Shown here: one piece after another, positions 2,706-62,219 of the stretch | Position numbering within the stretch: position 1 is the first letter of the stretch | Layout of the letters: each line of letters opens with the position of its first letter | Assembly: GCA_016929645.1 (NCBI GenBank) | Contig: JAFGIK010000026.1 | Location: forward strand, 14,288 to 78,287 | DNA from: Candidatus Dojkabacteria bacterium | GTDB lineage: Bacteria > Patescibacteriota > Dojkabacteria > SC72 > JAFGCJ01 | Reading direction: 5' to 3' | Length of the DNA: 64,000 bases | Position numbers and translations under genes: made by a program | Notes under the pieces: model-generated | The model's database searches: none | Seen by the model: the letters and a program-made list of their open reading frames with translations, nothing else | What the model was told of the DNA's origin: nothing

Positions 2706-3791
2706 ATGAGAGATATTATTAAAGAAACAAAGGAAAAGATATCAAAAATAAAAATAGCATTAAGCCTGGATGAAAAAGTTGATGAAATGAAAAATCTTGA
2801 GTTACAGACTTCAGATCAACATTTCTGGGATAATCCAAAGGAAGCTCAAAGTATCATGCAGAAAATTAACGAGACAAAAGATAAAGCTGACATAATAAAC
2901 TCAATCGAAACCAAATTATCTGAAATTGAAGAACTGGATGAAATGCTAGAGAAAGATCCAGATCCTCAAATAGAATTAGATATTGACAAGGAACTTGCCG
3001 ATATTACCCAAATACTTGGTAAATTTGAATTAGAACAATTTCTCTCTGGCAAATACGACATCAATAATGCAATAGTATCAATACACGCAGGCCAGGGTGG
3101 AACTGAGGCCAACGATTGGGCAGAGATGTTACTTAGGATGTATCTGAGATATGCAGAAAGACAAAAATGGCAGACAAATATAATACACCAAGTTAGAGGC
3201 GAAGAGGCAGGGCTATCCACTGTTACTTTTGAAGTAATAGGTAAATTTGCTTACGGTTACCTAAAAAGGGAAAAAGGCACTCACAGACTTGTCCGATTAT
3301 CTCCCTACAACGCACAAAATTTAAGACAAACTTCATTTGCCGGAGTTGAAGTATTACCAATGATGGAAGAGAAAGACGCATCAGATTTTGTTATCCCCGA
3401 GTGTGATCTTGAATATAAAGCTGTAAAAGCAACCGGACCTGGAGGCCAACATGTCAACAAGGCATCTACTGCAATAGTTCTAACTCATAAACCCACAGGA
3501 ATCACAGTTCACTCTTCAAGACGTAGCCAGCATCAAAACAGAGAGACGGCCTTGTATATTTTAAAATCCAGATTATGGGAGTTAGAAGAAGATAAAAAAG
3601 ACCAAGAAAGAAAAAAAATGAAAGGTGAACACAAAATTGCAGCCTGGGGAAATCAAATAAGAAATTACGTTCTGCACCCGTACAAACTTGTTAAAGATTT
3701 GCGCACAAAAGTTGAAAGCAATAGTCCAGATTCTGTGCTAAATGGAGAGCTTGATCCATTTATTGATGCTGGCATTAGATTAGTGGCATAA
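2706..3791 (+). CDS. prfB: peptide chain release factor 2 (continuous ORF, no +1 frameshift seen)
   Basis: GGQ motif (ATGPGGQHVNKAST) and SPY tripeptide region; 361 aa. Confidence 0.85.
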   Translation: MRDIIKETKEKISKIKIALSLDEKVDEMKNLELQTSDQHFWDNPKEAQSIMQKINETKDKADIINSIETKLSEIEELDEMLEKDPDPQIELDIDKELADITQILGKFELEQFLSGKYDINNAIVSIHAGQGGTEANDWAEMLLRMYLRYAERQKWQTNIIHQVRGEEAGLSTVTFEVIGKFAYGYLKREKGTHRLVRLSPYNAQNLRQTSFAGVEVLPMMEEKDASDFVIPECDLEYKAVKATGPGGQHVNKASTAIVLTHKPTGITVHSSRRSQHQNRETALYILKSRLWELEEDKKDQERKKMKGEHKIAAWGNQIRNYVLHPYKLVKDLRTKVESNSPDSVLNGELDPFIDAGIRLVA

Positions 3792-3800
3792 TATACAAAG

Positions 3801-4820
3801 ATGATACATTTCGACCAAGTATCAAAATTTTATAACCCTGACATAGTAGCACTAAAAGATGCCTCTTTTAACATAGATACTGGAGAATTTTTATTTATCG
3901 TAGGTCATTCAGGAGCAGGAAAATCAACAATTATAAGATTACTTATTAGAGAAGAACTCCCAACCAAAGGACAGATTAAGTTCGACGACATTGATCTTTC
4001 AGCGTTAAATCGGAAGACATTACCATTATATCGACAAAAAATCGGAGTTGTTTTTCAGGATTACAAACTTTTGGAAAATAAAACCATCAAAGAAAACATC
4101 GAATTTGCTTTAGAAATAACCGAGACACCAGATAATGAAATTAAAGATACAACCGATTACTTACTTGAAATAGTTAAACTACAAGATAGACGAGACGTAT
4201 TTCCTTCTCAATTATCTGGAGGAGAAAAACAAAGAGCAGGAATTGCCAGAGCAATTGCAAATGACCCAACAATATTAATAGCTGATGAACCTACAGGAAA
4301 TCTTGATCCAGAGACAGCAGGAGAAATAATGGAGCTGTTACAAAAAATCAATAATTGGGGAACAACTGTTATTATTGCAACACACGCAAAAGAAATTGTT
4401 GATCAGATGCAAAAGAGAGTTATTAGGCTAGAGAAAGGCCAAATAGTCAGCGATATGCTAGGATTTTATCAAAACGAAAAAAAATCCAACAAAGCAAAAG
4501 AAAGTAAACCAAATAACAACAATGAAATCAATTTAGAAGTAAAGGAAAAGCAAGAGTCAACAAGAGAAGTTGACGAAGAGCAGGAACATGCAGAAAAAAA
4601 ATCTAAAAACGTGGAACAAGGATCCATATCAATAAGAGAGCTAAATATTTCTGAAAAGTTTATGAGAATCCTAGAAGAATCAAATATCACTACGATCGAC
4701 AAGTTACTAGATTTAAGCGACGAAGACTTAGGCCAAATAAAGGGATTAACAATGCACGATATTGAAGAAATTCTGTTAAAATTACAGGAATATATTACCG
4801 ATCAAACACAAAATGGCTAA
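3801..4820 (+). CDS. ftsE: cell division ATP-binding protein FtsE with about 110-aa C-terminal extension ending in an RpoA alpha-CTD-like helix-hairpin-helix domain
   Basis: Walker A GHSGAGKST, signature LSGGEKQR, 4-bp gap to prfB; C-terminal ISIRELNISEKFMRILEESNITTIDKLLDLSDEDLGQIKGLTMHDIEEI resembles alpha-CTD HhH. Confidence 0.8.
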   Translation: MIHFDQVSKFYNPDIVALKDASFNIDTGEFLFIVGHSGAGKSTIIRLLIREELPTKGQIKFDDIDLSALNRKTLPLYRQKIGVVFQDYKLLENKTIKENIEFALEITETPDNEIKDTTDYLLEIVKLQDRRDVFPSQLSGGEKQRAGIARAIANDPTILIADEPTGNLDPETAGEIMELLQKINNWGTTVIIATHAKEIVDQMQKRVIRLEKGQIVSDMLGFYQNEKKSNKAKESKPNNNNEINLEVKEKQESTREVDEEQEHAEKKSKNVEQGSISIRELNISEKFMRILEESNITTIDKLLDLSDEDLGQIKGLTMHDIEEILLKLQEYITDQTQNG

Positions 4821-10298: not shown

Positions 10299-10328
10299 AA
10301 AAAATCTATCTTAATATATTATTTATTC

Positions 10329-10610
10329 TTACTGTTTATATACTAAATCACCCTTTTTGACGACTCCGCTGACTTTCATACCAAAATCCTTTTCTGCTTC
10401 GGCTTCTGTAATATCAGCACCATCAACCTGCATTGAATCTACAGATTGCTCGACAAGAACATTTCCATCTTTGTCATAGATCTTGATCTGATCACCAACA
10501 GTCATCTTTTCTAGAGGATGAACTACTGCAACAGAAATCTTGTCGAAAAAGTGAACAATCACTCCAACTTTTGTACCTTCAAAAGAGGCCTGATTTCCTG
10601 TTTCGTCCAT
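10329..10610 (-). CDS. hypothetical small beta-rich protein
   Basis: 93 aa ORF co-directional with hpf; no recognisable family. Confidence 0.4.
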   Translation of the reverse strand: MDETGNQASFEGTKVGVIVHFFDKISVAVVHPLEKMTVGDQIKIYDKDGNVLVEQSVDSMQVDGADITEAEAEKDFGMKVSGVVKKGDLVYKQ

Positions 10611-10755
10611 TAGTATAAATATTAAAACTTAGTAATATTTATACTAACATTAACAATGCAGTTATTCAACACGGAAAATAAAAATTATAAGCTTTGAAAA
10701 AAATGGTAGGAAAAGTGTACAGTTCTTATATCTCTATTATCAATTTTTGATTAAC

Positions 10756-10815
10756 CGTGTCCTTTAGCTCCAACTCTTGAATTGCACTCATGGTGCGAAG
10801 CTAAAGGACACGGAA
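10756..10815. repeat. perfect 14-bp inverted repeat (CCGTGTCCTTTAGC / GCTAAAGGACACGG) around a 32-bp spacer
   Basis: Read directly; lies just 3' of the GC-rich small gene on the minus strand; no U-tract, so not a classical terminator. Confidence 0.6.
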
Positions 10816-10832
10816 ATGGCGGCGCAAGGATT

Positions 10833-11090
10833 TTAATTGCACCAAGAGGAAAGAACTATCGCCCCGACGAGGGCGATAGGTAGGGCGAAGAGTGGGAAAT
10901 TCCATATGTTATGAGTTATTACCAAGCTAAGGGGCGCCCCTATGACCGCTCCAAGTGGGAGCAATGGTAACGTCCAATAGACCACTCTCTTTAGCCACTC
11001 GATTCGCTTCTCGCGGCGGATAGTATTGAGCTCAGAGAGCCAATGGCTAATGTTCCTATCTTCTTGACTATAGTCTTCGTTGTCGTCCAT
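10833..11090 (-). CDS. small two-TM membrane protein encoded in a GC-rich (about 50 percent) block, likely horizontally acquired
   Basis: ATG at 11090 with strong SD GGAGGTG 5 nt upstream (track uses GTG at 11096); codon usage GC3-rich unlike neighbours. Confidence 0.5.
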   Translation of the reverse strand: MDDNEDYSQEDRNISHWLSELNTIRREKRIEWLKRVVYWTLPLLPLGAVIGAPLSLVITHNIWNFPLFALPIALVGAIVLSSWCN

Positions 11091-11198
11091 ACTCACCTCC
11101 TATTTTTTTCAAGAGCATAATAATTATACCACACTATGGGGTGTATCTCAACAGGGACGAAACCGGGAAAGTTGCTCTGTGATCCACTCAATTCTTAT

Positions 11199-22252: not shown

Positions 22253-22804
22253 ATGGGAGCTATGTCATTAATTTGCAAAAAGCTGTACCCAAAATGCAAT
22301 CAAGTCTTTGTTGGACCATGTATTACCAAGAAAAATGAAGCCGCAGAAATTGGAGGAATTGATCTTGCAATTACATTTAAGGAACTATCCGAGTATTTTG
22401 ATAAAAATCCCATTGATATAAAAACCGTGCACAAAAAGAGTTTTAACAAATTTTATAACGATTACACCAAAATTTATCCTGTATCAGGAGGACTTTCTGA
22501 CACACTACATCATGAAAAAGTTCTTGATGGAAATCAAATATTAGTCATGGACGGAATTGCAAATCTCATGCCAGTATTCAATGAATTTAAAGATGGATTT
22601 TACAAAGACTATCTGTTTCTAGATTGCCTAAGCTGCAACGGAGGTTGCATTGCAGGACCAGGGATAAACAACACTCTGGATTTAGAATCCAGAAGAAAAA
22701 AGGTTCTAGCGTATAAGAATTTTGCAATGAATAATGAAAAAGATTTAGAAAGACGTGGCATGGTTCATGATGCAGATGGAATTGATTTTAAAAGGATATT
22801 CTAA
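22253..22804 (+). pseudogene. [FeFe]-hydrogenase-like H-cluster domain, C-terminal fragment (L2 and L3 motifs only)
   Basis: VGPCITKKNEAAE resembles MPCxxKxxE and LDCLSCNGGCIAGPG resembles EVMACPGGCxxGGG; L1 TSCCP region absent, frame closes 60 nt upstream. Confidence 0.45.
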
Positions 22805-22982
22805 GCCCCTCCCAAAACGAAACAAAAGTTGTATAAATGTATTAATGATAAATTAACCTCAAAATTTATAATTTCTCAATATCGAGACAAACCATTGACC
22901 CATAATGTATTTTAATGTACTATTTGGTCAAGCAAAATCAAAAAATACAAATTTCTATATAAAATATCAGGAATATAGAATC

Positions 22983-25145
22983 ATGGCAGAAGATAAAGAC
23001 CTTGGCCCAAAGATTAAAACACCCCTTAGAGAAAACCTTGCAGTACCTAGTGAAACATTACGCGAAATTTATGATGCTGTAGAAACAGGACAAAATCCTA
23101 ATGCACCAGAGGAATTGTTTTATAACGATATAGAAATTGATAGATCCAAAATCCTACCTCAACAGGATTTTAATGAAGAACACACTACTAATCCAGAACA
23201 TTTAGCACAAAGAATACAAGGAGTCTTAGTTAGAACCGGAGCCTTTATTGATATAAAAAAACTTGAAGCTGCAAGAGAAGAGGCTGCAGCACAAGGAGCG
23301 CAAGGCGGACATTTTAGAGATGAAAGAGGAGACTTAACTTTGCTCAAACAAGAACCACATGACAGACTAGCACAGGTCATTGATGAGAATACAATACCAA
23401 CATCATTATCGGATTTATTTGATGCAGAGAACAGCCCAGTAACAAGTTCATACACATCAAGAACTAAAATACACCAAGGTCGGGACATAGGTTATTCAAA
23501 AGGAAAAGCTGGAATTCATATTCATACCGCCCAGACTGATAGATTTGTGTTTACAGAAGGTGCATGGGAAATAGTGCTTGTTGATATGAGGCAAGTGTCA
23601 CCAAGCTACGGTACAAGAGTCTGTCTTTCTTTTGATGCAAGTCAGGAAAATCAGCTTGCACTTGTAATACCTCCAGGAATCGCCCACACAATTGCATGCT
23701 TTAGAGAGGCTCCTGATGGTAAAGAATATGCAACACTGGTAAACTTTCCAACACTCGGATATAGCGAACTACCTCCAAGTATAGCAAAAGGAAATTATTC
23801 ACCTCAAACAGCAATCAGGGCAATGGAAGGAAGGCTTGATCCAACTAGAGTCATTGCAAATAGTGGTAATAAAACTGAAGCTGGAACAACGTTTAACTGG
23901 CTTTTATATCAAAGATGGCTATTAAACAGGGCAAAGCTAGAAGAAAGGAAAGAGGAGGAAAATACCAGAAATATTGTATTAGCTGGAGGATCAAATGGGC
24001 TTCTTGGTTCACTCATCGAACAAGAACTTTGGAAAAATGGTTTTGTAACAGAATCTGCATCCAGATATCAAGCTTTAGATGCAGATGGCATAAACATGAG
24101 AATAGATCTAACAAAACTATCTGAAGATCAAATCGTTGAATGGTTACTAGGATCGAATGCACAGGCCGTTATATTAACAGCTGCATGGACAGATGTTCCA
24201 GCAAGCATAGCATTAGCTTCATTTATAAATAAATATCAAGAAGAACTTACCATTGCAGGTATTCATGGGACAGACCCTGTAAGTGAGATAAATATTAATT
24301 TTGTTGTCAGGCTAGCAAACGCAATAAAGAAAGCAAGGGAAATCTACGGCAGGCAAATCAAACTTGTACTGCCACAAACAACAATGGCATCAATTGGCAC
24401 AATTCTAAATGCGAATTATTATGCAAGAACTAAAGCAGTTGGTATACAACAAGCACAACAAATTCTTGGTAATAATGCGTTAGTAGCAACATTTGGTTAT
24501 CCGTACGTAATCGATGCTGCACAGATACCACAATCTGCCAAATCAATGACTTTACACAAGAGAATAGAACAAGTAGTTAGGGCTATTAGGCAAGAAGGCT
24601 CTTCTGCAGTCAGTGCTTTTTTTAACGACGCCATAGATCTAACAGATATGAATCCTGTTCTTGCAAATATCTTGCAGTACATTACAAATCCGAAACAAGA
24701 ACCTAATCCTCTAGATCAAAGACTAAATTGGGTTTCAACTCTAGAACTATGCAATCTTATAGCAGACGTATACGTTTCACTATACGGAGGAGATATTGAC
24801 GAAGTGAAAAAATTATCGATTACATCAGCTTCAATGAGCGGATATAAACCAACAAATGGTGATTTATTAAGATATAACAACGCAACAGGAGAATGTAGTA
24901 ATCCTGTATATGCATGGATTACTAATGCTGTTCGAGTGATTAAACAGAAATTAAGAATAGACATCGACTTATTACAATTCATCAAAGAAGAAGCTAACTA
25001 CAGCAAAGCATATCCAAGCTTTTCGAGCTTTAATCAAGATCCTACAACTGCTTCAACTTATAGAATAAAATTAATAAACGACATAATAAGAATAATGGTA
25101 CAGAAATACGGAGCGGCAACAGTCTCCCAGGACAAGCAAGATTAA
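22983..25145 (+). CDS. large protein with RmlC-like cupin (dTDP-sugar 3,5-epimerase-like) and RmlD-like NAD(P)-binding reductase regions plus about 190-aa N-terminal extension
   Basis: GIHIHTAQ...VIPPGIAHT cupin pattern; NIVLAGGSNGLLGSLIEQEL...AVILTAAWTDV Rossmann pattern; start at ATG 22983 with AGGAA upstream. Confidence 0.55.
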   Translation: MAEDKDLGPKIKTPLRENLAVPSETLREIYDAVETGQNPNAPEELFYNDIEIDRSKILPQQDFNEEHTTNPEHLAQRIQGVLVRTGAFIDIKKLEAAREEAAAQGAQGGHFRDERGDLTLLKQEPHDRLAQVIDENTIPTSLSDLFDAENSPVTSSYTSRTKIHQGRDIGYSKGKAGIHIHTAQTDRFVFTEGAWEIVLVDMRQVSPSYGTRVCLSFDASQENQLALVIPPGIAHTIACFREAPDGKEYATLVNFPTLGYSELPPSIAKGNYSPQTAIRAMEGRLDPTRVIANSGNKTEAGTTFNWLLYQRWLLNRAKLEERKEEENTRNIVLAGGSNGLLGSLIEQELWKNGFVTESASRYQALDADGINMRIDLTKLSEDQIVEWLLGSNAQAVILTAAWTDVPASIALASFINKYQEELTIAGIHGTDPVSEININFVVRLANAIKKAREIYGRQIKLVLPQTTMASIGTILNANYYARTKAVGIQQAQQILGNNALVATFGYPYVIDAAQIPQSAKSMTLHKRIEQVVRAIRQEGSSAVSAFFNDAIDLTDMNPVLANILQYITNPKQEPNPLDQRLNWVSTLELCNLIADVYVSLYGGDIDEVKKLSITSASMSGYKPTNGDLLRYNNATGECSNPVYAWITNAVRVIKQKLRIDIDLLQFIKEEANYSKAYPSFSSFNQDPTTASTYRIKLINDIIRIMVQKYGAATVSQDKQD

Positions 25146-26165: not shown

Positions 26166-27152
26166 ATGATATCAATAAATCCAATAAAACAATTATTAAA
26201 AAACGAGTATGGGCTTGATTGGTTCAAATTAGAAAACCTTCATGGTCATACAGACATGATATACAAAGTAACAACCCACAGGCACAAGTATGTTTTAAAA
26301 GTTTCTCTAAACAGAAAAATGTCAAAACGCCGATTTGAAAGCCAGATTAATTATATTCAATATTTACAAAATCACGACATTCTCTCACCCAAAATAATAA
26401 AACCATGCACAGGCAATTTATACACAACGATTAAGGATTATAGAAATAGGTACTCTGCTTTATTTGAATATATTGATAATTTATACAGTCCAAACTTATC
26501 CAAACCATCAGAAGCAAGGGAATATGCAAAATATATCGGAAACCTACATAAAATCTCTCATAAATACAATAATAAGCACTACTGGTATTACGATCCAATT
26601 TCGGAAGAGACTAGAAAATTAAAATACCTGGAAAAATTCGTAAAAAAATCCAAACGAAAATACCTCGCAAAACTAATAAAAATAAAGAAAGACAACATTT
26701 CAAGATATAAAAAATTAAGACCCAAACTTGGTAAGACAATGCTTTTAAATGATTTAAGCGAAGGAAATATCTTCAAAATAAATAATAATTATATATTTAT
26801 TGACTGGAATATCGCAGCAACAGGATATTTTGCAGATGAAATTGCATGGATAATCACATGGTTTTTCATCAAGAAAAATAACATGAAACATCTTTCAAAA
26901 TTTCTTGATGAATACTTGAAACATTTTCCATTAAACAGCATAGAATTGGAACTTCTAACCTTTATGCCAATTAGTTACGCTTATACAATGTGGGATAACT
27001 TCGAAGAATGTAAGACAAAGGAATTATTTAGAGAGCAGGAAAAGAAGATTCTGGATTCATCAAAAATACTGGAACAGCTTATCAGACAAGTTTCAACCTC
27101 TTTATCCCACCACCGAGCAACATACATATCCCATTCTCACGACGAACAATAA
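26166..27152 (+). CDS. APH/ChoK-like phosphotransferase family protein
   Basis: NDLSEGNIFKI...IFIDWNIAATGYFADEIAW (Brenner/DxD-like motifs). Confidence 0.6.
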   Translation: MISINPIKQLLKNEYGLDWFKLENLHGHTDMIYKVTTHRHKYVLKVSLNRKMSKRRFESQINYIQYLQNHDILSPKIIKPCTGNLYTTIKDYRNRYSALFEYIDNLYSPNLSKPSEAREYAKYIGNLHKISHKYNNKHYWYYDPISEETRKLKYLEKFVKKSKRKYLAKLIKIKKDNISRYKKLRPKLGKTMLLNDLSEGNIFKINNNYIFIDWNIAATGYFADEIAWIITWFFIKKNNMKHLSKFLDEYLKHFPLNSIELELLTFMPISYAYTMWDNFEECKTKELFREQEKKILDSSKILEQLIRQVSTSLSHHRATYISHSHDEQ

Positions 27153-27263
27153 GTATTTTACGAAAGATGATATTATTGAGATAATTCAAATATAGATATC
27201 TTTGAAGTCTAGCCAAATTCACGTCAAAGATTTTGAATATTTTAATTAATAATTAATAAATCT

Positions 27264-28031
27264 ATGGAAAAACAATTCAAAGGATTAAATAGATTCAATA
27301 TATTTATGGGGGCATTACATTTGCTACAAGCTCTTGCAGTCTATTTCATAAGTGATCCTGATAAAGGCATCGTTCCAATAACCATTAATTATCTAGAATA
27401 TGATCAAATCGCTGCAAAATTATTACCTGCAACTAAAGAAGTATTTTCAGTAAATTTGGCTTGGTTTGTTGTTATCTTTTTTCTGTTAAGCTCTGTTGCT
27501 CACTTTTTCATTGGAACTATTTATATGAGTAAATACGAATCAGATCTAAAACTCGGGATTAACAAAGTTAGATGGTTCGAATATTCACTTAGTGCAAGTG
27601 TCATGATGATAGCAATAAGCTTACTATCTGGGATCTATGATTTATCAAGTCTTATTATGATTTTTACACTTGACGCACTTATGAATCTATTAGGACTTGC
27701 AATGGAAAAAGAAAATCAAGGGAAATCAAAGCTGAATTGGTTAACTTTTATACTCGGCTGTATAGCAGGAATTGTCCCATGGATTGTTTACGGAATTTAT
27801 GTTTATGGGGCAAGTCAATATGGAGGAGGAAATATTCCAGATTTCGTTTATTGGATTTACGTGTCTATCTTTTTGTTCTTTAATAGTTTTGCTGTAAATA
27901 TGTTTTTGCAATATAAGAAAATTGGACCTTGGAAAGATTATCTGTATGGAGAAAAGGTATATATTATATTAAGCTTGGTAGCAAAGTCTTTACTTGCATG
28001 GCAGGTATTTGCTGGAACATTGAGACCATAG
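27264..28031 (+). CDS. heliorhodopsin (7-TM retinal protein)
   Basis: Recalled heliorhodopsin motifs all present: N-terminal FNxxxGxxHLLQ, VRWFEYSLSASVM, GCIAGIVPW, FLFFNSFA, YIILSLVAKSLLAWQVF (Schiff-base Lys). Confidence 0.75.
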   Translation: MEKQFKGLNRFNIFMGALHLLQALAVYFISDPDKGIVPITINYLEYDQIAAKLLPATKEVFSVNLAWFVVIFFLLSSVAHFFIGTIYMSKYESDLKLGINKVRWFEYSLSASVMMIAISLLSGIYDLSSLIMIFTLDALMNLLGLAMEKENQGKSKLNWLTFILGCIAGIVPWIVYGIYVYGASQYGGGNIPDFVYWIYVSIFLFFNSFAVNMFLQYKKIGPWKDYLYGEKVYIILSLVAKSLLAWQVFAGTLRP

Positions 28032-28049
28032 GGTTAGAAAAATAGGGAA

Positions 28050-28470
28050 AAAATGCCGAGAATGTTGAAGTTGCTAATGGGTATATCTCCACTTGCGGAA
28101 GCTGGATTCACTTTCCGCTCATTTCATTCGCTTCAAGTATGTATCGTGTCAGCCACTCGTCTTTGCTAATGCTCGACTCGTGGGACACAGCTCTGCACTA
28201 CGTCTCTTTTCGTTACTTACTCACTTTGTTCGTAAAACTCAAAGTACTCAGCACTCCTGTCGACACCCAATCATTCTCGCTTTGCTCGAATTCTTGGGTC
28301 TCCAGTTGCGAACCTGTTTCTGGTTCTCAACAGAATCTAACAAGTACCTTAGGAATACAACACTACGTATTCCCAAGGTATTGCCAAACGTTAGGATTTC
28401 ATGATGCCAAATTCCTAAAGCGAAAAATTGAAATGTGTTGAATTTAAGAGGTTTTGAGAATTTTTATAAT
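28050..28470. ncRNA. candidate structured non-coding RNA of unknown class (GC-rich island)
   Basis: About 48 percent GC vs about 33 percent background; several nested perfect/near-perfect helices (e.g. 12-bp CCUUAGGAAUAC/GUAUUCCCAAGG); only overlapping multi-frame ORFs without RBS. Confidence 0.3.
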
Positions 28471-28479
28471 GGTAAACCA

Positions 28480-28550
28480 TTGCGGGACCAGGATTCGAAC
28501 CTGGACTAGGCGCTTCAGAGGCGCCCGTCCTACCATTAGACGATCCCGCA
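28480..28550 (-). tRNA. tRNA-Gln (anticodon CUG)
   Basis: Hand-folded cloverleaf: acceptor UGCGGGA/UCCCGCA (U1-A72), 3-bp D-stem, anticodon stem GGCGC/GCGCC loop CUCUGAA, T-arm CCAGG-UUCGAAU-CCUGG. Confidence 0.85.
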
Positions 28551-28806
28551 GTTCAATAAGTAAATTTTAAAAAAGCTTAGAACATCTATCAACTAAAAGT
28601 AATTTTAGCAGCAAATACAATAAATCAACAGAATTGTACCACAAAATAATAAATTATCTCATACATCAATTTGCCTCGAATGCAACTCACTAATTACTAA
28701 TAATGAGCCAATTAAATTCGCATAATTTTTAAAACTTGCAAAAAATTTTAAATTTCATTATTATGTCCTGTTGATTGCCGATTTTTATATACAAAATTCA
28801 ATATTT

Positions 28807-29571
28807 ATGGCAAATAAGTCAATAATTACAGTACAAGATCTAAGAAAAACATACGGCGACTTAAAAGCTGTGGACGGTGTGTCATTTGAAGTATATGAAA
28901 ATGAGATTTTTGGAATCCTTGGACCTAACGGAGCTGGTAAAACAACCACTCTTGAAATGATTGAAGGCCTTAAGCAAATTGATGAAGGTATTGTTGAAAT
29001 AGACGGTATAAATGTTGCACAAAAACCCGAAGCCGTAAAAAAAATAGTTGGAATACAACTTCAGTCTTCTGCCTATTTTGAATATTTGAATATTACTGAG
29101 CTTTTAGATCTTTTCGGTACTTTCTACAAGAGGAAGATCGATGCAAAGGACTTAATTGACAAGGTTAATCTGGAAGGTAAAGAAAAATCATACGTAAAAC
29201 AGTTATCAGGAGGTCAACAACAAAGGATGTCCATAGCTTCGTCATTGGTAAATGATCCAAAAGTTTTATTCCTTGACGAACCGACAACTGGTCTTGACCC
29301 TCAAGCAAGAAGATCCCTTTGGGACTTGATTGAAGAGATTCGAAATACAGATAAAAAAACAATTGTTCTTACAACCCATTACATGGATGAAGCTGAACAA
29401 TTATGTGACCGAGTAGCAATAATGGATGATGGCAAGATTATAACAATTGATACACCAGCAAATTTAATTAAAAATCTATTAAGTAAAGGCTTTAAGCCAA
29501 GAAAAAGAAAATTCGAAGCAACATTAGAAGATGTATTTCTTGACCTTACGGGGAAAAAACTTAGAGATTAG
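28807..29571 (+). CDS. ABC transporter ATP-binding protein
   Basis: Walker A GPNGAGKTT, LSGGQQQR, Walker B LFLDEPT; start at MANKS. Confidence 0.85.
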   Translation: MANKSIITVQDLRKTYGDLKAVDGVSFEVYENEIFGILGPNGAGKTTTLEMIEGLKQIDEGIVEIDGINVAQKPEAVKKIVGIQLQSSAYFEYLNITELLDLFGTFYKRKIDAKDLIDKVNLEGKEKSYVKQLSGGQQQRMSIASSLVNDPKVLFLDEPTTGLDPQARRSLWDLIEEIRNTDKKTIVLTTHYMDEAEQLCDRVAIMDDGKIITIDTPANLIKNLLSKGFKPRKRKFEATLEDVFLDLTGKKLRD

Positions 29572-29630
29572 AACAGAATCATAAAAACGAACTAAATAAT
29601 TTACAAAAAGTAATTAACAAATTATAAAAA

Positions 29631-30725
29631 ATGAGTGAATTAAGTGTATTTTGGAAACTTACAAAAGCAAATATATTGATGTACATCCGTGACCGTGGTG
29701 CAATCTTTTGGTCGCTATTTTTTCCATTCATGATTATTGGAATCTTTGGTCTACTTGATTTCGGAAACATGGGAACAATGAATATCGGACTTGTGTACGA
29801 TGACACCACAAAAATGTATGCTGAATCACTTGAAGATATTTTAAAAGAAGATCAGAATTACAAATTTCACACAGGTTCAAAAGAACATGAAATGAACGAG
29901 TTGGAGAATGACAACAGAATAACAGTTCTCGAATTCACCAAAAAAGATAACGGCCAACTTGAAGTTAAAAGCTATACTGGCAAACAAAATGAGAATTATG
30001 GATTTATCGTAACAATGGTTTCAGAAAAGATTTTACTTGAGATGTCCCTTGCCCAACAGCAAATACAAAATCCCGTTGTAACCCAACAAGAAACAGTAAA
30101 CACCAACAATCTTAGAAATATCGACTATGTCGTCCCAGGAGTTATTGCAATGACTCTCATGCAAGGAAGTTTATTCACAGTAATTGGTACAATCGTTGGC
30201 AACAGAGAAAAAGGCATATTAAAAAGAATCTTTGCTACACCACTTGATAAGACTACATTCCTCGTATCGAATGTAGTAAGCCGAACTGTTATTGCTATGA
30301 TGCAGGTTGCAATTTTACTAATTGTTTCCTGGATTGTATTTAAAATCAAAATTGTTGGAAGCGTGCCATTAGTTGCAATTCTTTCAATACTTGGATGTTT
30401 GGTATTCTTATCCATGGGATTTTTAGTATCTGGAATTGCAAAAACATCCGAAGCTGCAAGATCGATGGTAATGCCATTCCAAATGATTATGATGTTTACA
30501 GGTGGTGTTTACTTTGATAGAAGCGTGCTACCAGGCTGGCTATACGACATTACAGCATATTCACCATTAACATACCTTTCAGACAGCTTGAAAGATGTGA
30601 TGGTTAAAGGTTACGGACTTGGTGATGCAAGTGTGAGAACTACATTGATAGCCTTATCAATTTGGTTAGTCGTACTCATCGTAATATCAGTACGAACCTT
30701 CAAGTGGGAAGATAACGGCAAATAA
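29631..30725 (+). CDS. ABC-2 family transporter permease
   Basis: N-terminal TM, large loop, 5 C-terminal TMs; follows ATPase gene. Confidence 0.75.
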   Translation: MSELSVFWKLTKANILMYIRDRGAIFWSLFFPFMIIGIFGLLDFGNMGTMNIGLVYDDTTKMYAESLEDILKEDQNYKFHTGSKEHEMNELENDNRITVLEFTKKDNGQLEVKSYTGKQNENYGFIVTMVSEKILLEMSLAQQQIQNPVVTQQETVNTNNLRNIDYVVPGVIAMTLMQGSLFTVIGTIVGNREKGILKRIFATPLDKTTFLVSNVVSRTVIAMMQVAILLIVSWIVFKIKIVGSVPLVAILSILGCLVFLSMGFLVSGIAKTSEAARSMVMPFQMIMMFTGGVYFDRSVLPGWLYDITAYSPLTYLSDSLKDVMVKGYGLGDASVRTTLIALSIWLVVLIVISVRTFKWEDNGK

Positions 30726-35407: not shown

Positions 35408-37300
35408 TTACTGTTTAAAATCAGAATCCTTGGATACCGGATTTGGCTCTGCGATCTTTATTAAATCCGACGCCTTCATGATTATTGATCTATCACGTCT
35501 ACCAGCATTAAACGCTACCTTTTCCTTTTCCCAGAAAGATTTATCAATATATGTCTCAATCTCGAACAATTTTCCAAAAGGTGGAACAGCTCCAACTTTT
35601 ACCCCAAGCTCTGACTCAACAAACTCAGGGTCAGCAAACTTAAGCTTTTCGCCTACAACAGCAGAAGCTTTTTTCATATCAAGCTTCTTATCCGCAGGTA
35701 TACAGACCATAACAAGGCCTCCATCAGGTTTGGTCAAAATCATCGCTTTTGGTGCAATATCCATAGGGGTATTTCGCACTTCAGCCGCCTCTTCCGAAGT
35801 TTTTACAGATCGATGTTCGATTACTTCATATTTAACATCCTCAGAATCAAGCAATCTTTTCAATCTGACAAAAATCACATCACTTTCCTCACCTATATTA
35901 ACAGCCAATCCTAATTCTTTTAGGTGGTCGGGATTTGCAATAGATGGTGCATCCATAACAGATGTTCTACCACGTCTTGTCATTGGAAAGGCAATTGTTT
36001 CTTTTAGAGATTGCTCATTTGCAAGAAGCATGATAATTCTATCAACACCCAGAGCTAATCCTCCATGAGGTGGGGTTCCGAGTTCAAAGGCCTTTACCAT
36101 ATGTCCGATAGCTTTCATCATATCTTCCTCAGAATATCCCATTATCTTGTAAGTCGCTTTCAATACTTCAGGATCATGCGCACGGATACTTCCACCACCT
36201 ACTTCAAGACCATTACAAACAAGGTCATACTGAGTTGTCATTATTTTATCAATATTTTCACCTTTTAAGTGCCATTCTATATGCTCATCAACTGGTTTGC
36301 TAAATGGGTTATGAGTAAATACCCAGCCACTTCTACTTTCTTCAACTTCACTTGCGTCCTTTCGGTCAACTTTCTTGAAAAAAGGAAACTTCACAACCCA
36401 AGCAAATGCAAGTACATTAGCTTTTTTCTCCTCTTCTGTTCTTAGATCAAACTTATCTGCACCATATTTTTTTATCGCTTCATCATAAGGAATTACAGGG
36501 AATGGATCTTCTTTCAATTTAGATCCAACAGCTTTTACAGCCGCTTTGACAGAATTTTCAACAGCACTCATAACCTCAGATTCATTAACAAAACTCATTT
36601 CTAAATCAAGTTGTGTAAATTCGAATCCTCGATCAAACTTCAAATCTTCATCTCGAATACATCTGGCTAACTGAAAATATCTATCTACACCAGCAGTCAT
36701 AAGTAGTTGTTTGTATTGTTGCGGGCTTTGAGGCAAGGCATAAAATTTGCCGGGAGCCATCCTTGATGGGACAAGGAAATTTCGAGCTCCCTCAGATGTT
36801 CCCATAGACAGAAGTGGGGTCTCTACTTCTGTAAAATCCTGTTCAAAAAAACCTTCTCTTAATGATCTAACAAAATTTGACCTCATAACGAGAATATTGT
36901 GCATTCGTTCTCTTCGTAAATCCAGATATCGATATTTCAACCTTAATTCTTCATCGATTTCATACCCATCACTTTTTACAGGAATTGGTAGTTCTTTGCA
37001 TTTATTAAGAACTTTATATTCAGAGACATCGATTTCAATTGTTCCTGTAACTAAATCCTTATTGACACTGTTTTCTGGTCTTTTATTTACTTTTCCAATA
37101 ATTTCAATAACTGATTCATCAGAAAGCTTATCCCCTTTTTTAGTAATAACACATTGGATAATACCTAACTTATCCCGAAGATCAACAAAAGTTACACGTC
37201 CATGATCACGCAGTGTATCAACCCATCCTTGTAGTTTTATAGTTTCTCCAACTTTCTCATTTGCTTGTGCAGTAAGAGTTCTTGATAAATTTGGATTCAT
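35408..37300 (-). CDS. aspS: aspartyl-tRNA synthetase (short form, apparently lacking GAD insertion) fused to C-terminal YbaK/ProX-like aminoacyl-tRNA deacylase domain
   Basis: Class II motif 2 FRDEDLKFDRGFEFTQLDLEMSF, motif 3 GGGSIR...GLALGVDR; C-terminal about 160 aa with GAVPPFG signature of YbaK/ProX. Confidence 0.85.
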   Translation of the reverse strand: MNPNLSRTLTAQANEKVGETIKLQGWVDTLRDHGRVTFVDLRDKLGIIQCVITKKGDKLSDESVIEIIGKVNKRPENSVNKDLVTGTIEIDVSEYKVLNKCKELPIPVKSDGYEIDEELRLKYRYLDLRRERMHNILVMRSNFVRSLREGFFEQDFTEVETPLLSMGTSEGARNFLVPSRMAPGKFYALPQSPQQYKQLLMTAGVDRYFQLARCIRDEDLKFDRGFEFTQLDLEMSFVNESEVMSAVENSVKAAVKAVGSKLKEDPFPVIPYDEAIKKYGADKFDLRTEEEKKANVLAFAWVVKFPFFKKVDRKDASEVEESRSGWVFTHNPFSKPVDEHIEWHLKGENIDKIMTTQYDLVCNGLEVGGGSIRAHDPEVLKATYKIMGYSEEDMMKAIGHMVKAFELGTPPHGGLALGVDRIIMLLANEQSLKETIAFPMTRRGRTSVMDAPSIANPDHLKELGLAVNIGEESDVIFVRLKRLLDSEDVKYEVIEHRSVKTSEEAAEVRNTPMDIAPKAMILTKPDGGLVMVCIPADKKLDMKKASAVVGEKLKFADPEFVESELGVKVGAVPPFGKLFEIETYIDKSFWEKEKVAFNAGRRDRSIIMKASDLIKIAEPNPVSKDSDFKQ

Positions 37301-53055: not shown

Positions 53056-53085
53056 GAGATCTTTCTGATTAAGAGATAGCAAGAA

Positions 53086-53115
53086 GGGAGCGGCCGCAAG
53101 GCCGCTCCCTCTTTT
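53086..53115 (+). terminator. GC-rich rho-independent terminator (GGGAGCGGCC-GCAA-GGCCGCTCCC + TCTTTT), likely bidirectional
   Basis: Perfect 10-bp GC stem followed by U-tract, 30 nt after the 53055 stop; convergent gene 53184-53669 ends opposite. Confidence 0.7.
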
Positions 53116-53183
53116 ATGATCAAATATCCAACGGTCAATACGGCCGGTGGATTACTCCCTTATCAACCACCCCACTCTGGGCC

Positions 53184-54778: not shown

Positions 54779-55948
54779 TTAACTATTTTTCTCTAGCCAT
54801 GCCTTCACTTCCACTATAGCATATTCTTGCAACTCCTCTATATTTACCAATTCTATCTTTTCATTAAATTTCTCCAGAAGGTCGTAGTGATTCAGATTGC
54901 TTTCATAACATATTGAATGAGGAACATTTTCTTTTTTAACTGCAAATACAATTTTTCTAATCCCTGCCCAATAAGCTCTCGACAAACACATTAAGCATGG
55001 CTCCATTGAGGCATACAACATGCAATCAGTAAGTTGTTCATTAAGCTCGTTTATTGCTATATCAATTGATTTTGATTCTGGGTGAAAGTTGATCTTAGGA
55101 AACGAGGTCGAAGTTGTTTTTGATATTACCTTTCCGTCTTTTACTATAACTGCACCTGCAGGGAATGCTCCTTCATCATAGGATTGATGAGACATTTCTA
55201 TTGCCATTTTTAAATATTCTATGTCTTTATCGTTGTAATCATACTTCTTGATAACTTGAATTGTCCCTGATTTACTTGATCGTAAAATATCCAAAAATAA
55301 TTCAGCTATCTTTTCAGGCGACACAGCATCCTTTGCATATTCTGGAAACCATTTTGTATACTCTTCTGTCGCAGTGTCTGAAGGAGATATTCCGTTCACA
55401 TAGATTTTTTGGTCTTTAAGTTCATCAGCTAAACCGTATGTAAGATCTTCAAGAGCTTTCTTTGAGGCATAATATGGAATCCAACCTTTGCCACCGTTCT
55501 CAAAAGTACCTGAAAGGTTAATAATATGGGAACCTTTATTCATGTATGGTAATAGTCCGTGAATAATTAGGGATGGGGCAGTAAAGCCTACCGAGTATGT
55601 ATCTGTTATTACTTTTTCACCAAAGGTTTCAAAATCTTTTCCTGCAAATACTTCCTTATCATCGTGCCAGATACCCGCAATATTTAAAATAGCATCTATT
55701 CCCGAGTAATTTCCTGCCTTGCAATTATCAATTACTTCATTAAGAAATCCCTTGATATTAAGCTCATCAGTTAGGTCAACTGTATAATATTCAGCTTCGC
55801 CTCCTTTTGATTTAATGTCTCTCACTATTTGGTCTAGTTTGTTGCTGCTTCTCGCAACAAGCAATACCCTATAGCCGTTCTTTGCAAGTTTATTGGCAAC
55901 AGCTTTCCCTATGCCTGTACTTGCTCCAGTTATTATTGCTGTTTTCAT
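54779..55948 (-). CDS. fusion: N-terminal SDR oxidoreductase + C-terminal CDA-fold (cytidine/nucleotide deaminase-like) zinc deaminase
   Basis: TGASTGIGKAV and YxxxK (YYASKKA) for SDR; HPE ... PCLMC zinc-binding pair for deaminase. Confidence 0.65.
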   Translation of the reverse strand: MKTAIITGASTGIGKAVANKLAKNGYRVLLVARSSNKLDQIVRDIKSKGGEAEYYTVDLTDELNIKGFLNEVIDNCKAGNYSGIDAILNIAGIWHDDKEVFAGKDFETFGEKVITDTYSVGFTAPSLIIHGLLPYMNKGSHIINLSGTFENGGKGWIPYYASKKALEDLTYGLADELKDQKIYVNGISPSDTATEEYTKWFPEYAKDAVSPEKIAELFLDILRSSKSGTIQVIKKYDYNDKDIEYLKMAIEMSHQSYDEGAFPAGAVIVKDGKVISKTTSTSFPKINFHPESKSIDIAINELNEQLTDCMLYASMEPCLMCLSRAYWAGIRKIVFAVKKENVPHSICYESNLNHYDLLEKFNEKIELVNIEELQEYAIVEVKAWLEKNS

Positions 55949-58131: not shown

Positions 58132-58899
58132 ATGAATAATATATCCAAATCACAGAAGAAGACAGCACTCGTAACCGGAGCCTCTAGAGGTATAGGTAAA
58201 TCAATTGCAGAGGCACTTATCAATAACGGTTTTTTCGTCTATGCCACATACAATTCCACAGATATTTCAGATATGGAAAAAAAACATAAGGATAGTCTTG
58301 AATTTATCAAAGTTGATTTCAAATCTACACAGGATTTGCAAAAGTTTATTAAAAATATACAGAAACATAACTTTGATTTAGTTATTAACAATGCAGGGAT
58401 GTTCGAACAGGAAGTTTTTGATAAATACGATCACGATATCTGGTATAACACATTCCAAGTTAATCTACATACAGCCTTCGAAATATGCATAAATCTCATC
58501 GAAAACATTAAAGAAGATGGAAGTATTATTAACATCGCAAGCACTGATGGATATCAAGGATCATTTGGAAGTATGGCATACGCGGCAAGCAAAGCAGCAC
58601 TTCTAAATCTCACAAAAAGCCTGGCTAATAACTATGGAGCACTTGGAGTACGAGTAAACTCAATTTCTCCAGGATGGATAAACACATCAATGGCAACAGA
58701 TGCATCATACGAGGCTGCAAGTCTTTCTCCTCTTGGACGGAATGGTAAACCAGAGGAAATATCAGACGTTGTTTTGTGGCTTGCTTCCGACGCTGCGAGA
58801 TTTGTCACAGGATCTGATATAAAGGTCGATGGCGGATACACAAATGTGGACTACATTATGAAGAAAGAAGCAGAAGATATAAAGAATCAGGAACAATAG
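58132..58899 (+). CDS. SDR family oxidoreductase (FabG-like)
   Basis: TGASRGIGKSI, NNAG, YAASKAA motifs; divergent from TrmB pair. Confidence 0.8.
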   Translation: MNNISKSQKKTALVTGASRGIGKSIAEALINNGFFVYATYNSTDISDMEKKHKDSLEFIKVDFKSTQDLQKFIKNIQKHNFDLVINNAGMFEQEVFDKYDHDIWYNTFQVNLHTAFEICINLIENIKEDGSIINIASTDGYQGSFGSMAYAASKAALLNLTKSLANNYGALGVRVNSISPGWINTSMATDASYEAASLSPLGRNGKPEEISDVVLWLASDAARFVTGSDIKVDGGYTNVDYIMKKEAEDIKNQEQ

Positions 58900-61613: not shown

Positions 61614-61843
61614 TATTTATCTTGTGTAAATTTAAAATATATTTGTTCGGAAGTAGTCTGATAACCTATTGAAAATTGGTAATGCCAGACGACTCTCGTT
61701 TCCCTCGCTAGATACATAGATAAAACCTGATCCATGTATCCACACCGATTGCCCTGCAAACTACTGAGTCTATAATCACCACAATGTACATTATATGTAT
61801 ATGGTCGGATGGCAACCCCACGGCTCCCTTTTAGATGTATAAA

Positions 61844-61885
61844 TCGGGGTGACTCGACTTGAACGAGCGACCCCACGCACCCCAT
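61844..61885 (-). pseudogene. 3' half of a second tRNA-Pro(GGG) (anticodon loop to discriminator)
   Basis: AUGGGGU-GCGUG-GGGUC-GCUCG-UUCAAGU-CGAGU-CACCCCG-A; acceptor strand complements the 5' half at 62015-62053. Confidence 0.55.
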
Positions 61886-61887
61886 TC

Positions 61888-61990
61888 TGTCAACTTACAA
61901 ATCGGGATGACCCGACTTGAACGGGCGACCTCACGCACCCCATGCGTGCGCACTAGCCAACTGTGCTACATCCCGATTTGTAAGTTGACA
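61888..61990. repeat. perfect 15-bp inverted repeats (TGTCAACTTACAAAT / ATTTGTAAGTTGACA) immediately flanking the intact tRNA-Pro, extending its acceptor stem to a 22-bp helix
   Basis: Read directly at 61888-61902 and 61976-61990. Confidence 0.7.
61902..61975 (-). tRNA. tRNA-Pro (anticodon GGG), intact
   Basis: Hand fold: CGGGAUG/CAUCCCG acceptor (C1-G72), D GCAC/GUGC, anticodon stem CACGC/GCGUG loop AUGGGGU, variable AGGUC, T-arm GCCCG-UUCAAGU-CGGGU, discriminator A. Confidence 0.85.
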
Positions 61991-62014
61991 TCTTTCCCCA
62001 ACATGGGAAACGTC

Positions 62015-62053
62015 TCCCCATGCGTGTGCTCTAGCCAAATGAGCTACACCCCG
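62015..62053 (-). pseudogene. 5' half of the second tRNA-Pro(GGG) (acceptor to anticodon loop)
   Basis: CGGGGUG-UA-GCUC-AUUUGGCUA-GAGC-A-CACGC-AUGGGGA; combines with 61844-61885 into a perfect cloverleaf. Confidence 0.55.
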
Positions 62054-62219
62054 ATTCAAAAATCAACATTTTCCCTCTACTCGAGGGGCATCTCCCCATA
62101 CTACGCACCGACCAATTTACCTAGAATTCAATACCATTTCATAAAATATTTACGATAATATCATAAAACAACAGTAATCTTACTAAATCAATACTAGTTA
62201 TCAATCAGCAATAAATCAC

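Follow-up and report, generated by a model that had tools for sequence, protein, structure and literature searches.

What would a bacterium of a reduced-genome lineage do with a heliorhodopsin (HeR)? The question is posed by a 64,000-nucleotide stretch of DNA from Candidatus Dojkabacteria bacterium (contig JAFGIK010000026.1; here called the window), in which an earlier reading of the letters alone, hereafter the sequence-only reading, had picked out a gene for a seven-transmembrane (7-TM) protein of this family. The gene is a genuine, intact, and full-length heliorhodopsin. The best explanation for the locus as a whole, to which we assign a probability of roughly 0.85, is that its product belongs to a branch of HeRs that is rich in members of the candidate phyla radiation (CPR) and that resembles the HeR of the Thermoplasmatales archaeon SG8-52-1 (TaHeR). 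By analogy with its studied relatives, the protein would be a functional retinal-binding light sensor or regulator that uses scavenged retinal.

The protein is specified by an ATG-started open reading frame (ORF) of 255 amino acids (aa), whose coordinates in the ORF list are exactly those that had been proposed for it:

27264..28031, + strand: heliorhodopsin (HeR) coding sequence (CDS); ORF list, Pfam PF18761, NCBIfam NF038020, AlphaFold2 and Foldseek, identity to MBN1618020.1

Five motifs had been named as hallmarks of heliorhodopsins by the sequence-only reading, and each is present in the translation, namely FNIFMGALHLLQ (residues 11-22), RWFEYSLSASVM (103-114), GCIAGIVPW (165-173), FLFFNSFA (203-210), and SLVAKSLLAWQ (237-247). 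The only Pfam family matched by the protein is PF18761 (Heliorhodopsin), with 309.7 bits (E=1.5e-92; cut-off 26.7) over the entire profile (1-242/242), and the NCBIfam equivalog NF038020, termed “heliorhodopsin HeR”, is matched with 317.1 bits against a cut-off of 100. Heliorhodopsins are also the only significant matches among the sequences of the PDB. These include TaHeR (6is6, E=5e-75; 51% identity) and the founding heliorhodopsin 48C12 (6su3, E=1.3e-51; 44% identity), whose entries 6su3, 6uh3, and 9ljj all lie near 1e-51. Indeed, the top matches in Pfam, NCBIfam, the PDB, and Foldseek are HeRs in every case rather than members of another 7-TM family. The codon usage of the gene looks native, and its hexamer score of 0.53 is similar to those of other genes in the window, although this scoring is slightly circular in that HeR was among its 30 training genes.

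We mapped the residues of the chromophore site from HMMER alignments to TaHeR and 48C12, and measured their conservation in an alignment of 74 HeRs that span 49-100% identity. The codons of the Schiff-base lysine, the counterion, and nearby residues are as follows:

27984..27986, + strand: Lys241 codon, the retinal Schiff-base lysine (SLVAK); aligns to 48C12 K241 and TaHeR K238, invariant in 74 HeRs
27972-27974, + strand: Ser237 codon, SxxxK motif of helix G; aligns to 48C12 S237 and TaHeR S234
27579..27581, + strand: Glu106 codon, Schiff-base counterion (RWFEY); aligns to 48C12 E107 and TaHeR E108, invariant
27318..27320, + strand: His19 codon (equivalent to H23); residue map, at least 90% conserved
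27501-27503, + strand: His80 codon (equivalent to H80/H82), partner of His19; residue map, invariant

The sequence-only reading had made the alignment of Lys and Glu to the reference residues K241 and E107 a point to be checked. As predicted, Lys241 falls on 48C12 K241 and TaHeR K238, and Glu106 falls on 48C12 E107 and TaHeR E108. The Glu106 column is further pinned by the entry for the TaHeR E108D mutant (7clj), which carries D in the same column. The wider site corresponds one-to-one as well, with H19, S76, H80, R103, and E106 of the Dojkabacteria protein aligning to H23, S76, H80, R104, and E107 of 48C12, and with E148, Y226, E230, S237, and K241 aligning to E149, Y226, E230, S237, and K241. 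All of these residues are invariant across the 74 HeRs, except that H19 and S76 are each at least 90% conserved. The fact that the chromophore site is maintained down to 49% identity indicates that it is under purifying selection.

An AlphaFold2 model built from 49 close homologues is of moderate confidence (pLDDT 71.9, with helix G below 50). It has seven helices (residues 2-29, 65-84, 101-122, 127-150, 159-186, 193-220, and 229-252) and two strands (36-47 and 52-64) that correspond to the long A-B beta-hairpin typical of HeRs. In a Foldseek comparison of this model with the PDB, ranks 1-10 are all HeR chains (E from 5.5e-19 to 5e-12, TM-score ~0.6). The distribution of charged residues is also telling. 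Fourteen Lys/Arg residues lie on the predicted cytoplasmic side (N-terminus and the B-C, D-E, and F-G loops) and four on the other side, and the same direction of bias is seen in all 74 homologues (means 14.4 inside and 4.3 outside). By the positive-inside rule, this bias supports an inverted topology, in which the N-terminus is predicted to be cytoplasmic and the C-terminus outside.

An assignment to the type-1 microbial rhodopsins (Bac_rhodopsin, PF01036) was considered and rejected. That profile is not matched, the counterion is Glu rather than the Asp of helix C in that family, the charge bias is N-in rather than N-out, and type-1 structures come after the HeRs in the Foldseek results, only at E>0.03 and with TM-scores of ~0.4.

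The closest structural relative is TaHeR (PDB 6is6 and 7u55, with 7clj for the E108D mutant), with which the Dojkabacteria protein shares its length class and 51% identity over 245 aligned residues. The TaHeR residues H23, S78, H82, R105, E108, E150, E227, S234, and K238 are all conserved, and the C-terminal helix EKVYIILSLVAKS.LAWQVFAGTLRP is almost identical in the two proteins. Unlike the archaeal TaHeR, the Dojkabacteria HeR is from a bacterium of the CPR, its E-F loop is longer by five residues (QYGGG) and its A-B loop by two, and TaHeR F172 is replaced by Ile170. The resemblance to 48C12 (PDB 6su3, 6su4, 6uh3, and 9ljj) is of the same kind, wherein the E107/K241 pair (E106/K241 here), the H23/H80 pair, and the R104/E149/Y226/E230 cluster are conserved, whereas S112, N138, and Q213 of 48C12 are A111, D137, and M213 in the Dojkabacteria protein. 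The last of these corresponds to M210 of TaHeR.

The sequence-only reading had raised the possibility of a CPR-type symbiont as host, and a CPR host is borne out by exact NCBI matches across the window that carry the label of Candidatus Dojkabacteria, a candidate-phylum lineage formerly called WS6. The HeR protein itself is identical to MBN1618020.1, “heliorhodopsin HeR [Candidatus Dojkabacteria bacterium]”, and the APH-fold protein encoded upstream of it, RecA, glutamyl-tRNA synthetase (GluRS), aspartyl-tRNA synthetase (AspRS), phosphoglycerate mutase, and one hypothetical protein likewise find exact matches with this label on the same 95,686-bp contig. The genes of the window are those of bacterial housekeeping at ~35% GC, including RecA, RecX, RecJ, FtsEX, peptidoglycan enzymes, and aminoacyl-tRNA synthetases.

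That a light-related protein would be unexpected in such a host, as was also supposed, is not supported by the literature. In the survey of 1326 CPR genomes by Chiriac et al. 2022 (Microbiome, PMC9166423), 86 carried rhodopsins, with 115 sequences in total. Proton pumping was predicted for 17 of these sequences, and the remainder are inferred HeRs, seven of them in Dojkabacteria. SLVAK is among the commonest retinal motifs in those CPR HeRs (PMC9166423), and Bulzu et al. 2021 placed CPR proteins as the dominant members of HeR cluster C17, with a gene context that is not conserved in the CPR sub-cluster. The protein described here belongs to the same radiation and carries the same motif, and nothing substantive sets it apart from these published HeRs, although MBN1618020.1 may be outside the set of Chiriac et al. 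Thus both the annotation of this gene, in its GenBank record, and the presence of HeRs in Dojkabacteria, in the literature since 2021-2022, are already known.

More than 100 protein clusters, many of them named Dojkabacteria, match the HeR at 71-86% identity. Among species-representative genomes, ~30 carry a HeR of this clade (at least 69% identity), with the nearest relatives (85% identity) in metagenome-assembled genomes (MAGs) from lakes (ELA isolates). One record is at odds with its label. The 1629-bp contig LNGD01000252.1 (locus L014), assigned to the methanogenic archaeon Candidatus Methanofastidiosum, encodes a HeR that is 78% identical to the Dojkabacteria protein, and it is most simply read as a mis-binned Dojkabacteria contig rather than as the source of an archaeal HeR.

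If the protein binds retinal, then the chromophore must come from somewhere. Among ORFs of at least 110 aa in the 64-kb window there is no match to BCD/Blh, phytoene synthase, phytoene desaturase, or lycopene cyclase, which answers within this stretch the call of the sequence-only reading for a search for blh and crt genes. The window likewise has no photolyase, glutamine synthetase, or histidine-kinase gene, which are functions known to be linked to HeRs. Genomes that encode a HeR as their only rhodopsin are reported mostly to lack de novo retinal synthesis. A parallel is found in SacR, the type-1 rhodopsins of Saccharibacteria (Jaffe et al. 2022, PMC9296517), which are also retinal proteins of CPR bacteria. 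Their hosts lack blh, probably depend on externally supplied retinal, and load it rapidly, as TaHeR does (PMC9296517). Unlike the Dojkabacteria protein, which matches the HeR profile only, SacR proteins are outward proton pumps with a DTS motif and the opposite membrane orientation. With none of the genes for making retinal or carotenoids close to HeR, and with CPR genomes generally devoid of such a pathway, the protein would most probably rely on retinal scavenged from a host or the environment.

Two short-chain dehydrogenase (SDR) genes are present in the window, both 27-30 kb from HeR. The gene at 54779-55948 (- strand) encodes an N-terminal adh_short SDR fused to a C-terminal cytidine/deoxycytidylate deaminase domain, and the second SDR is at 58132-58899. 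Enzymes of this family have been suggested to serve as retinol dehydrogenases near HeRs.

Residue-for-residue conservation with the solved HeRs leads us to propose how the protein might work. Lys241 would carry all-trans-retinal in a protonated Schiff base, for which Glu106 would be the sole counterion, and His19 and His80 would form a proton-accepting group close by. As with TaHeR and 48C12, isomerization of the retinal by light would lead, without net transport of ions, to a long-lived intermediate, and positively charged, K/R-rich cytoplasmic loops would relay the signal to a partner protein. TaHeR and 48C12 reportedly show no transport. The HeR would therefore most likely be a slow-cycling light sensor or regulator, and not an energy pump. 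Sensory or oxidative-stress roles have been proposed for CPR HeRs, and oxidative-stress signaling for those of other monoderms as well (PMC9166423; Bulzu et al. 2021). In other organisms, HeRs are known to partner with glutamine synthetase, photolyase, and an ABC exporter. None of the corresponding genes (glutamine synthetase, photolyase, or an ABC exporter in an operon) is found near HeR at this locus.

Do the genes that are next to HeR point to a partner? We compared 80 HeR loci from species genomes and three long Dojkabacteria contigs by calling and clustering the ORFs around HeR, and scanned with Pfam the 59 immediate HeR neighbors in the 33 loci of the clade, including that of the window. 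No gene from the flanks of the window recurs beside HeR in the clustered neighborhoods of the clade, a result that matches the published lack of conserved context in the CPR sub-cluster (Bulzu et al. 2021). A HeR partner is not encoded at a conserved position in Dojkabacteria.

Immediately upstream are two features:

26166..27152, + strand: APH-fold phosphotransferase, 328 aa, near-orphan; PF01636 34.2 bits (cut-off 23.2), weakly homoserine-kinase-like by NCBIfam
27157..27185, + strand: weak promoter-like site TTTACG-17-TG-GATAAT; consensus scan, 9/12 matches

The sequence-only reading had pointed to an APH-like kinase gene immediately upstream on the same strand, and the adjacency, the strand, and the PF01636 match are real. 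A conserved partnership is not supported, since an APH gene adjoins HeR in only two of the 33 clade loci, namely the window and locus L004 (Dojkabacteria genome CP129478.1). The proteins from the two loci align only poorly (BLASTP E=0.022 over 70 aa), which implies that they are not orthologues and are essentially unrelated beyond their fold. Furthermore, a single relative of the APH protein of the window turned up among 5.8 billion clusters (P0122, 51% identity, from a frameshifted gene). That relative is encoded on a groundwater contig from a relative of this genome (ENA ERZ909569; locus L089) in the order APH (32-924), tRNA-Gln (1308-1381), two unrelated genes, and GluRS (3198-3503), where the tRNA-Gln is 89% identical to window positions 28478-28551. 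Locus L089 has no HeR, ABC transporter, or GC-rich island. Since the sole APH homologue keeps the same synteny without HeR, the adjacency of APH and HeR reflects local gene order, and what lies next to tRNA-Gln varies between genomes, HeR having been either gained or lost there. The APH kinase was thus rejected as a conserved HeR partner. The 111-bp spacer between the two genes is 21% GC, and the number of promoter-like sites in the region is not above that of shuffled sequences. The promoter-like site would permit transcription of HeR independently of the APH gene, a possibility that is only suggestive.

Downstream of HeR, the order of features is as follows:

28040..28470, - strand: GC-rich non-coding island, candidate structured RNA; composition, fold z-score
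28480..28550, - strand: tRNA-Gln(CTG), convergent with HeR; Rfam 64 bits, ARAGORN
28771..30725, + strand: DrrA/DrrB-like ABC-2 exporter (ATPase 28771..29571; permease 29631..30725); Pfam ABC_tran, ABC2_membrane_3 (PF12698/PF01061)

The NCBIfam best matches of the exporter are drrA and drrB, below their cut-offs. Its genes begin after a 740-bp gap from HeR that holds the convergent tRNA-Gln. Any HeR transcription unit stops at this tRNA gene, which stands between HeR and the exporter, and with the tRNA-Gln and the ~450-bp island in between, HeR and the ABC genes are not co-transcribed. An ABC-2 pair beside HeR is absent in the other 32 clade loci. On these grounds the exporter was rejected as an operon partner of HeR. 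The linkage of HeR, tRNA-Gln(CTG), and GluRS (GltX) is seen also in loci L018 and L009 (Dojkabacteria clade) and L081 (Nomurabacteria), with different genes as fillers.

With these neighborhoods in hand, the readings that would give HeR a partner at this locus can be weighed. One is that HeR regulates the exporter by light, as the heliorhodopsin OcHeR does with OmrDE. The ATPase and permease genes follow HeR closely on its own strand, cytoplasmic loops 1 and 3 of HeR are K/R-rich as in the OcHeR-OmrDE system (Cho et al. 2024, PMC11109279), ABC transporters are one of ten recurrent classes of HeR neighbors, and OcHeR binds and up-regulates OmrDE (PMC11109279). Unlike the OcHeR-OmrDE genes, those of the window do not form one operon, the association is not conserved in the clade, and the transporters are of different types, in that OmrDE is a heterodimeric, TmrAB-like multidrug-resistance half-transporter and the neighbor of HeR is a separate ATPase plus an ABC-2/DrrAB-like permease. 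Locus L018 has the HeR, tRNA-Gln, and GltX synteny without the transporter, and in L089 the slot is filled by different genes. We therefore regard this reading as very improbable. Very unlikely is a two-gene module in which HeR would control the APH-fold kinase as a light-regulated phosphotransferase. The genes are on the same strand and 111 bp apart, the kinase sequence has the catalytic-loop-like motifs D196-x4-N201 and “IDW” (read from its translation), and in L004 an APH-family gene likewise precedes HeR (position -1, same strand), but the rarity of this arrangement in the clade, the near-orphan status of the kinase with its HeR-less relative, and the AT-rich spacer with its promoter-like site all argue otherwise. 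A broader version, in which HeR has gained a lineage-specific partner at this locus, be it the orphan kinase, the DrrAB-like exporter, or both, seems to us to have only a slim chance of being correct. Its sole hint is that L004, independently, also has an APH-fold gene directly before HeR. If it were true, light would control phosphorylation or export in an episymbiont by way of retinal obtained from its host.

Other readings concern what the protein itself does. The least probable of all is a light-driven or light-gated proton transporter like the viral V2HeR3, which would give a fermentative host energy or pH control. Passages in PMC12873467 and PMC11109279 cite proton transport for this one viral HeR, and CPR bacteria do use type-1 rhodopsins as pumps (PMC9296517). 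The Dojkabacteria protein is far closer to TaHeR and 48C12 (51% and 44%), however, with identical residues in the Schiff-base region. These two are said to lack transport (Pushkarev 2018; Shihoya 2019), and the viral HeRs fall in separate groups. We also consider it very doubtful that the role of HeR is independent of light, whether structural, lipid-related, or ligand-binding, or that the gene is an unused relic. Clade members do come from MAGs of anaerobic digesters, an anaerobic membrane bioreactor (AnMBR), groundwater, and sediment, as judged from record titles; TaHeR itself is from a sediment archaeon, and one report mentions a light-independent activity for a proteorhodopsin (PMC10730872). 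In opposition to this reading, the chromophore Lys, Glu, His, and Ser residues vary little or not at all within the clade and beyond it, which is the pattern expected if retinal photochemistry is under selection. In addition, the ORF is intact with native-looking codon usage, and the nearest relatives, at 85% identity, are from lake MAGs.

The reading that we prefer, a functional retinal-binding light sensor or regulator, has several points that weigh against it. What is proposed for retinal binding, the photocycle, and the lack of transport is carried over from proteins that are only 44-51% identical. Many clade members are from bioreactor, digester, sediment, and groundwater MAGs (record titles), where light is scarce, and a purely light-driven role is for this reason not self-evident. 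The search for retinal genes covered 64 kb of the genome. The neighborhoods, which are not conserved, point to no HeR partner, and the AlphaFold2 model from which the geometry of the pocket would be read is of moderate quality.

The GC-rich island downstream of HeR was also examined. Spanning ~450 bp from the HeR stop codon to tRNA-Gln, it has 42-49% GC, compared with mostly 19-34% in other spacers, and its minus strand folds at -130 kcal/mol (z=-5.67 versus shuffled sequences; z=-2.23 for the plus strand). The island matches no Rfam family even at E<=10, is not a tmRNA, and has no credible ORF, protein remnant, or coding signal. The consecutive NCBI accessions (HeR ending in 020, GluRS in 023) indicate that no CDS was called between HeR and the ABC genes. 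No similar DNA was found in the 85 fetched loci or in phages, and pattern scans gave nothing in viral contigs (22-mer) and chance matches only in metagenomes (20-mer). The island may be a structured RNA of ~400 nt outside known families that is transcribed with tRNA-Gln and located 3′ of it. A GC-rich 900-bp gap at 10299-11198 was examined as a second copy of the island and is instead explained by small ORFs. Intergenic stretches of raised GC (0.38-0.52) occur also at 61614-61900 and 61977-62219, which flank tRNA-Pro, and at 53056-53183.

Beyond the window, the comparison of HeR loci revealed a highly conserved family of 168-aa soluble proteins whose genes are on the same strand as HeR and directly beside it in 11 of 79 CPR HeR loci. 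The positions are as follows:

L021:10775-11281, L023:4970-5476, L024:10961-11467, L026:10767-11273, L027:10767-11273, L034:946-1452, L046:3989-4495: 168-aa family at +1 of HeR
L039:7546-8046, L042:9430-9936, L043:9440-9940: 168-aa family at -1 of HeR
L012:9152-9652: 168-aa family at -2 of HeR

The family is characterized by the motifs HEDPRGWFQWYxRYYMGRR, RQIKRWKA, and LHWAYDSRK, is found in both Dojkabacteria-type and Saccharimonadia-type genomes, and has no match in Pfam, NCBIfam, or the PDB. It is not encoded in the window. It is a possible family of HeR partners, and as such a better lead for HeR signaling in the CPR than the kinase or the exporter.

A different context, not seen in the window, is common to the Saccharimonadia/UBA4664-type loci (L046, L050-L055, L057, L058, L060, L063, and L064). 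A protein of ~170 aa with no Pfam match and the motif ICPDF...GFDSVIISDDQAS is encoded at position -1, a staphylococcal-nuclease-like protein at -2, FtsW/RodA at -3, and a thioredoxin-reductase-like Pyr_redox_2 protein at +2/+3. This context is consistent with the published link of HeRs to oxidative stress.

Several other genes of the window deserve mention. AspRS (35408-37300, - strand) carries a C-terminal YbaK/ProX-type editing domain (PF04073, residues 496-615), an uncommon fusion, and an FtsE-like ABC ATPase (3801-4820, + strand), which is followed by FtsX and an M23 peptidase, ends in a domain like the C-terminal domain of the RNA polymerase alpha subunit (PF03118, residues 266-330). The match of a 183-aa ORF (22253-22804, + strand) to the Fe-only hydrogenase large-subunit domain is confined to the C-terminal portion of that domain (positions 102-245 of 245), and the ORF is followed by a gene for a 746-aa protein (22905-25145, + strand) with weak RmlC-like cupin and RmlD-like matches.

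What these findings mean for Dojkabacteria is largely confirmatory. The survey of neighborhoods provides a useful negative, in that conserved partnership with HeR is seen for neither the kinase nor the ABC exporter. The gene itself is a verified HeR in a reduced-genome lineage, with its chromophore residues all intact and no local retinal pathway, a combination in keeping with the idea that bacteria of the CPR rely on retinal produced by other organisms.

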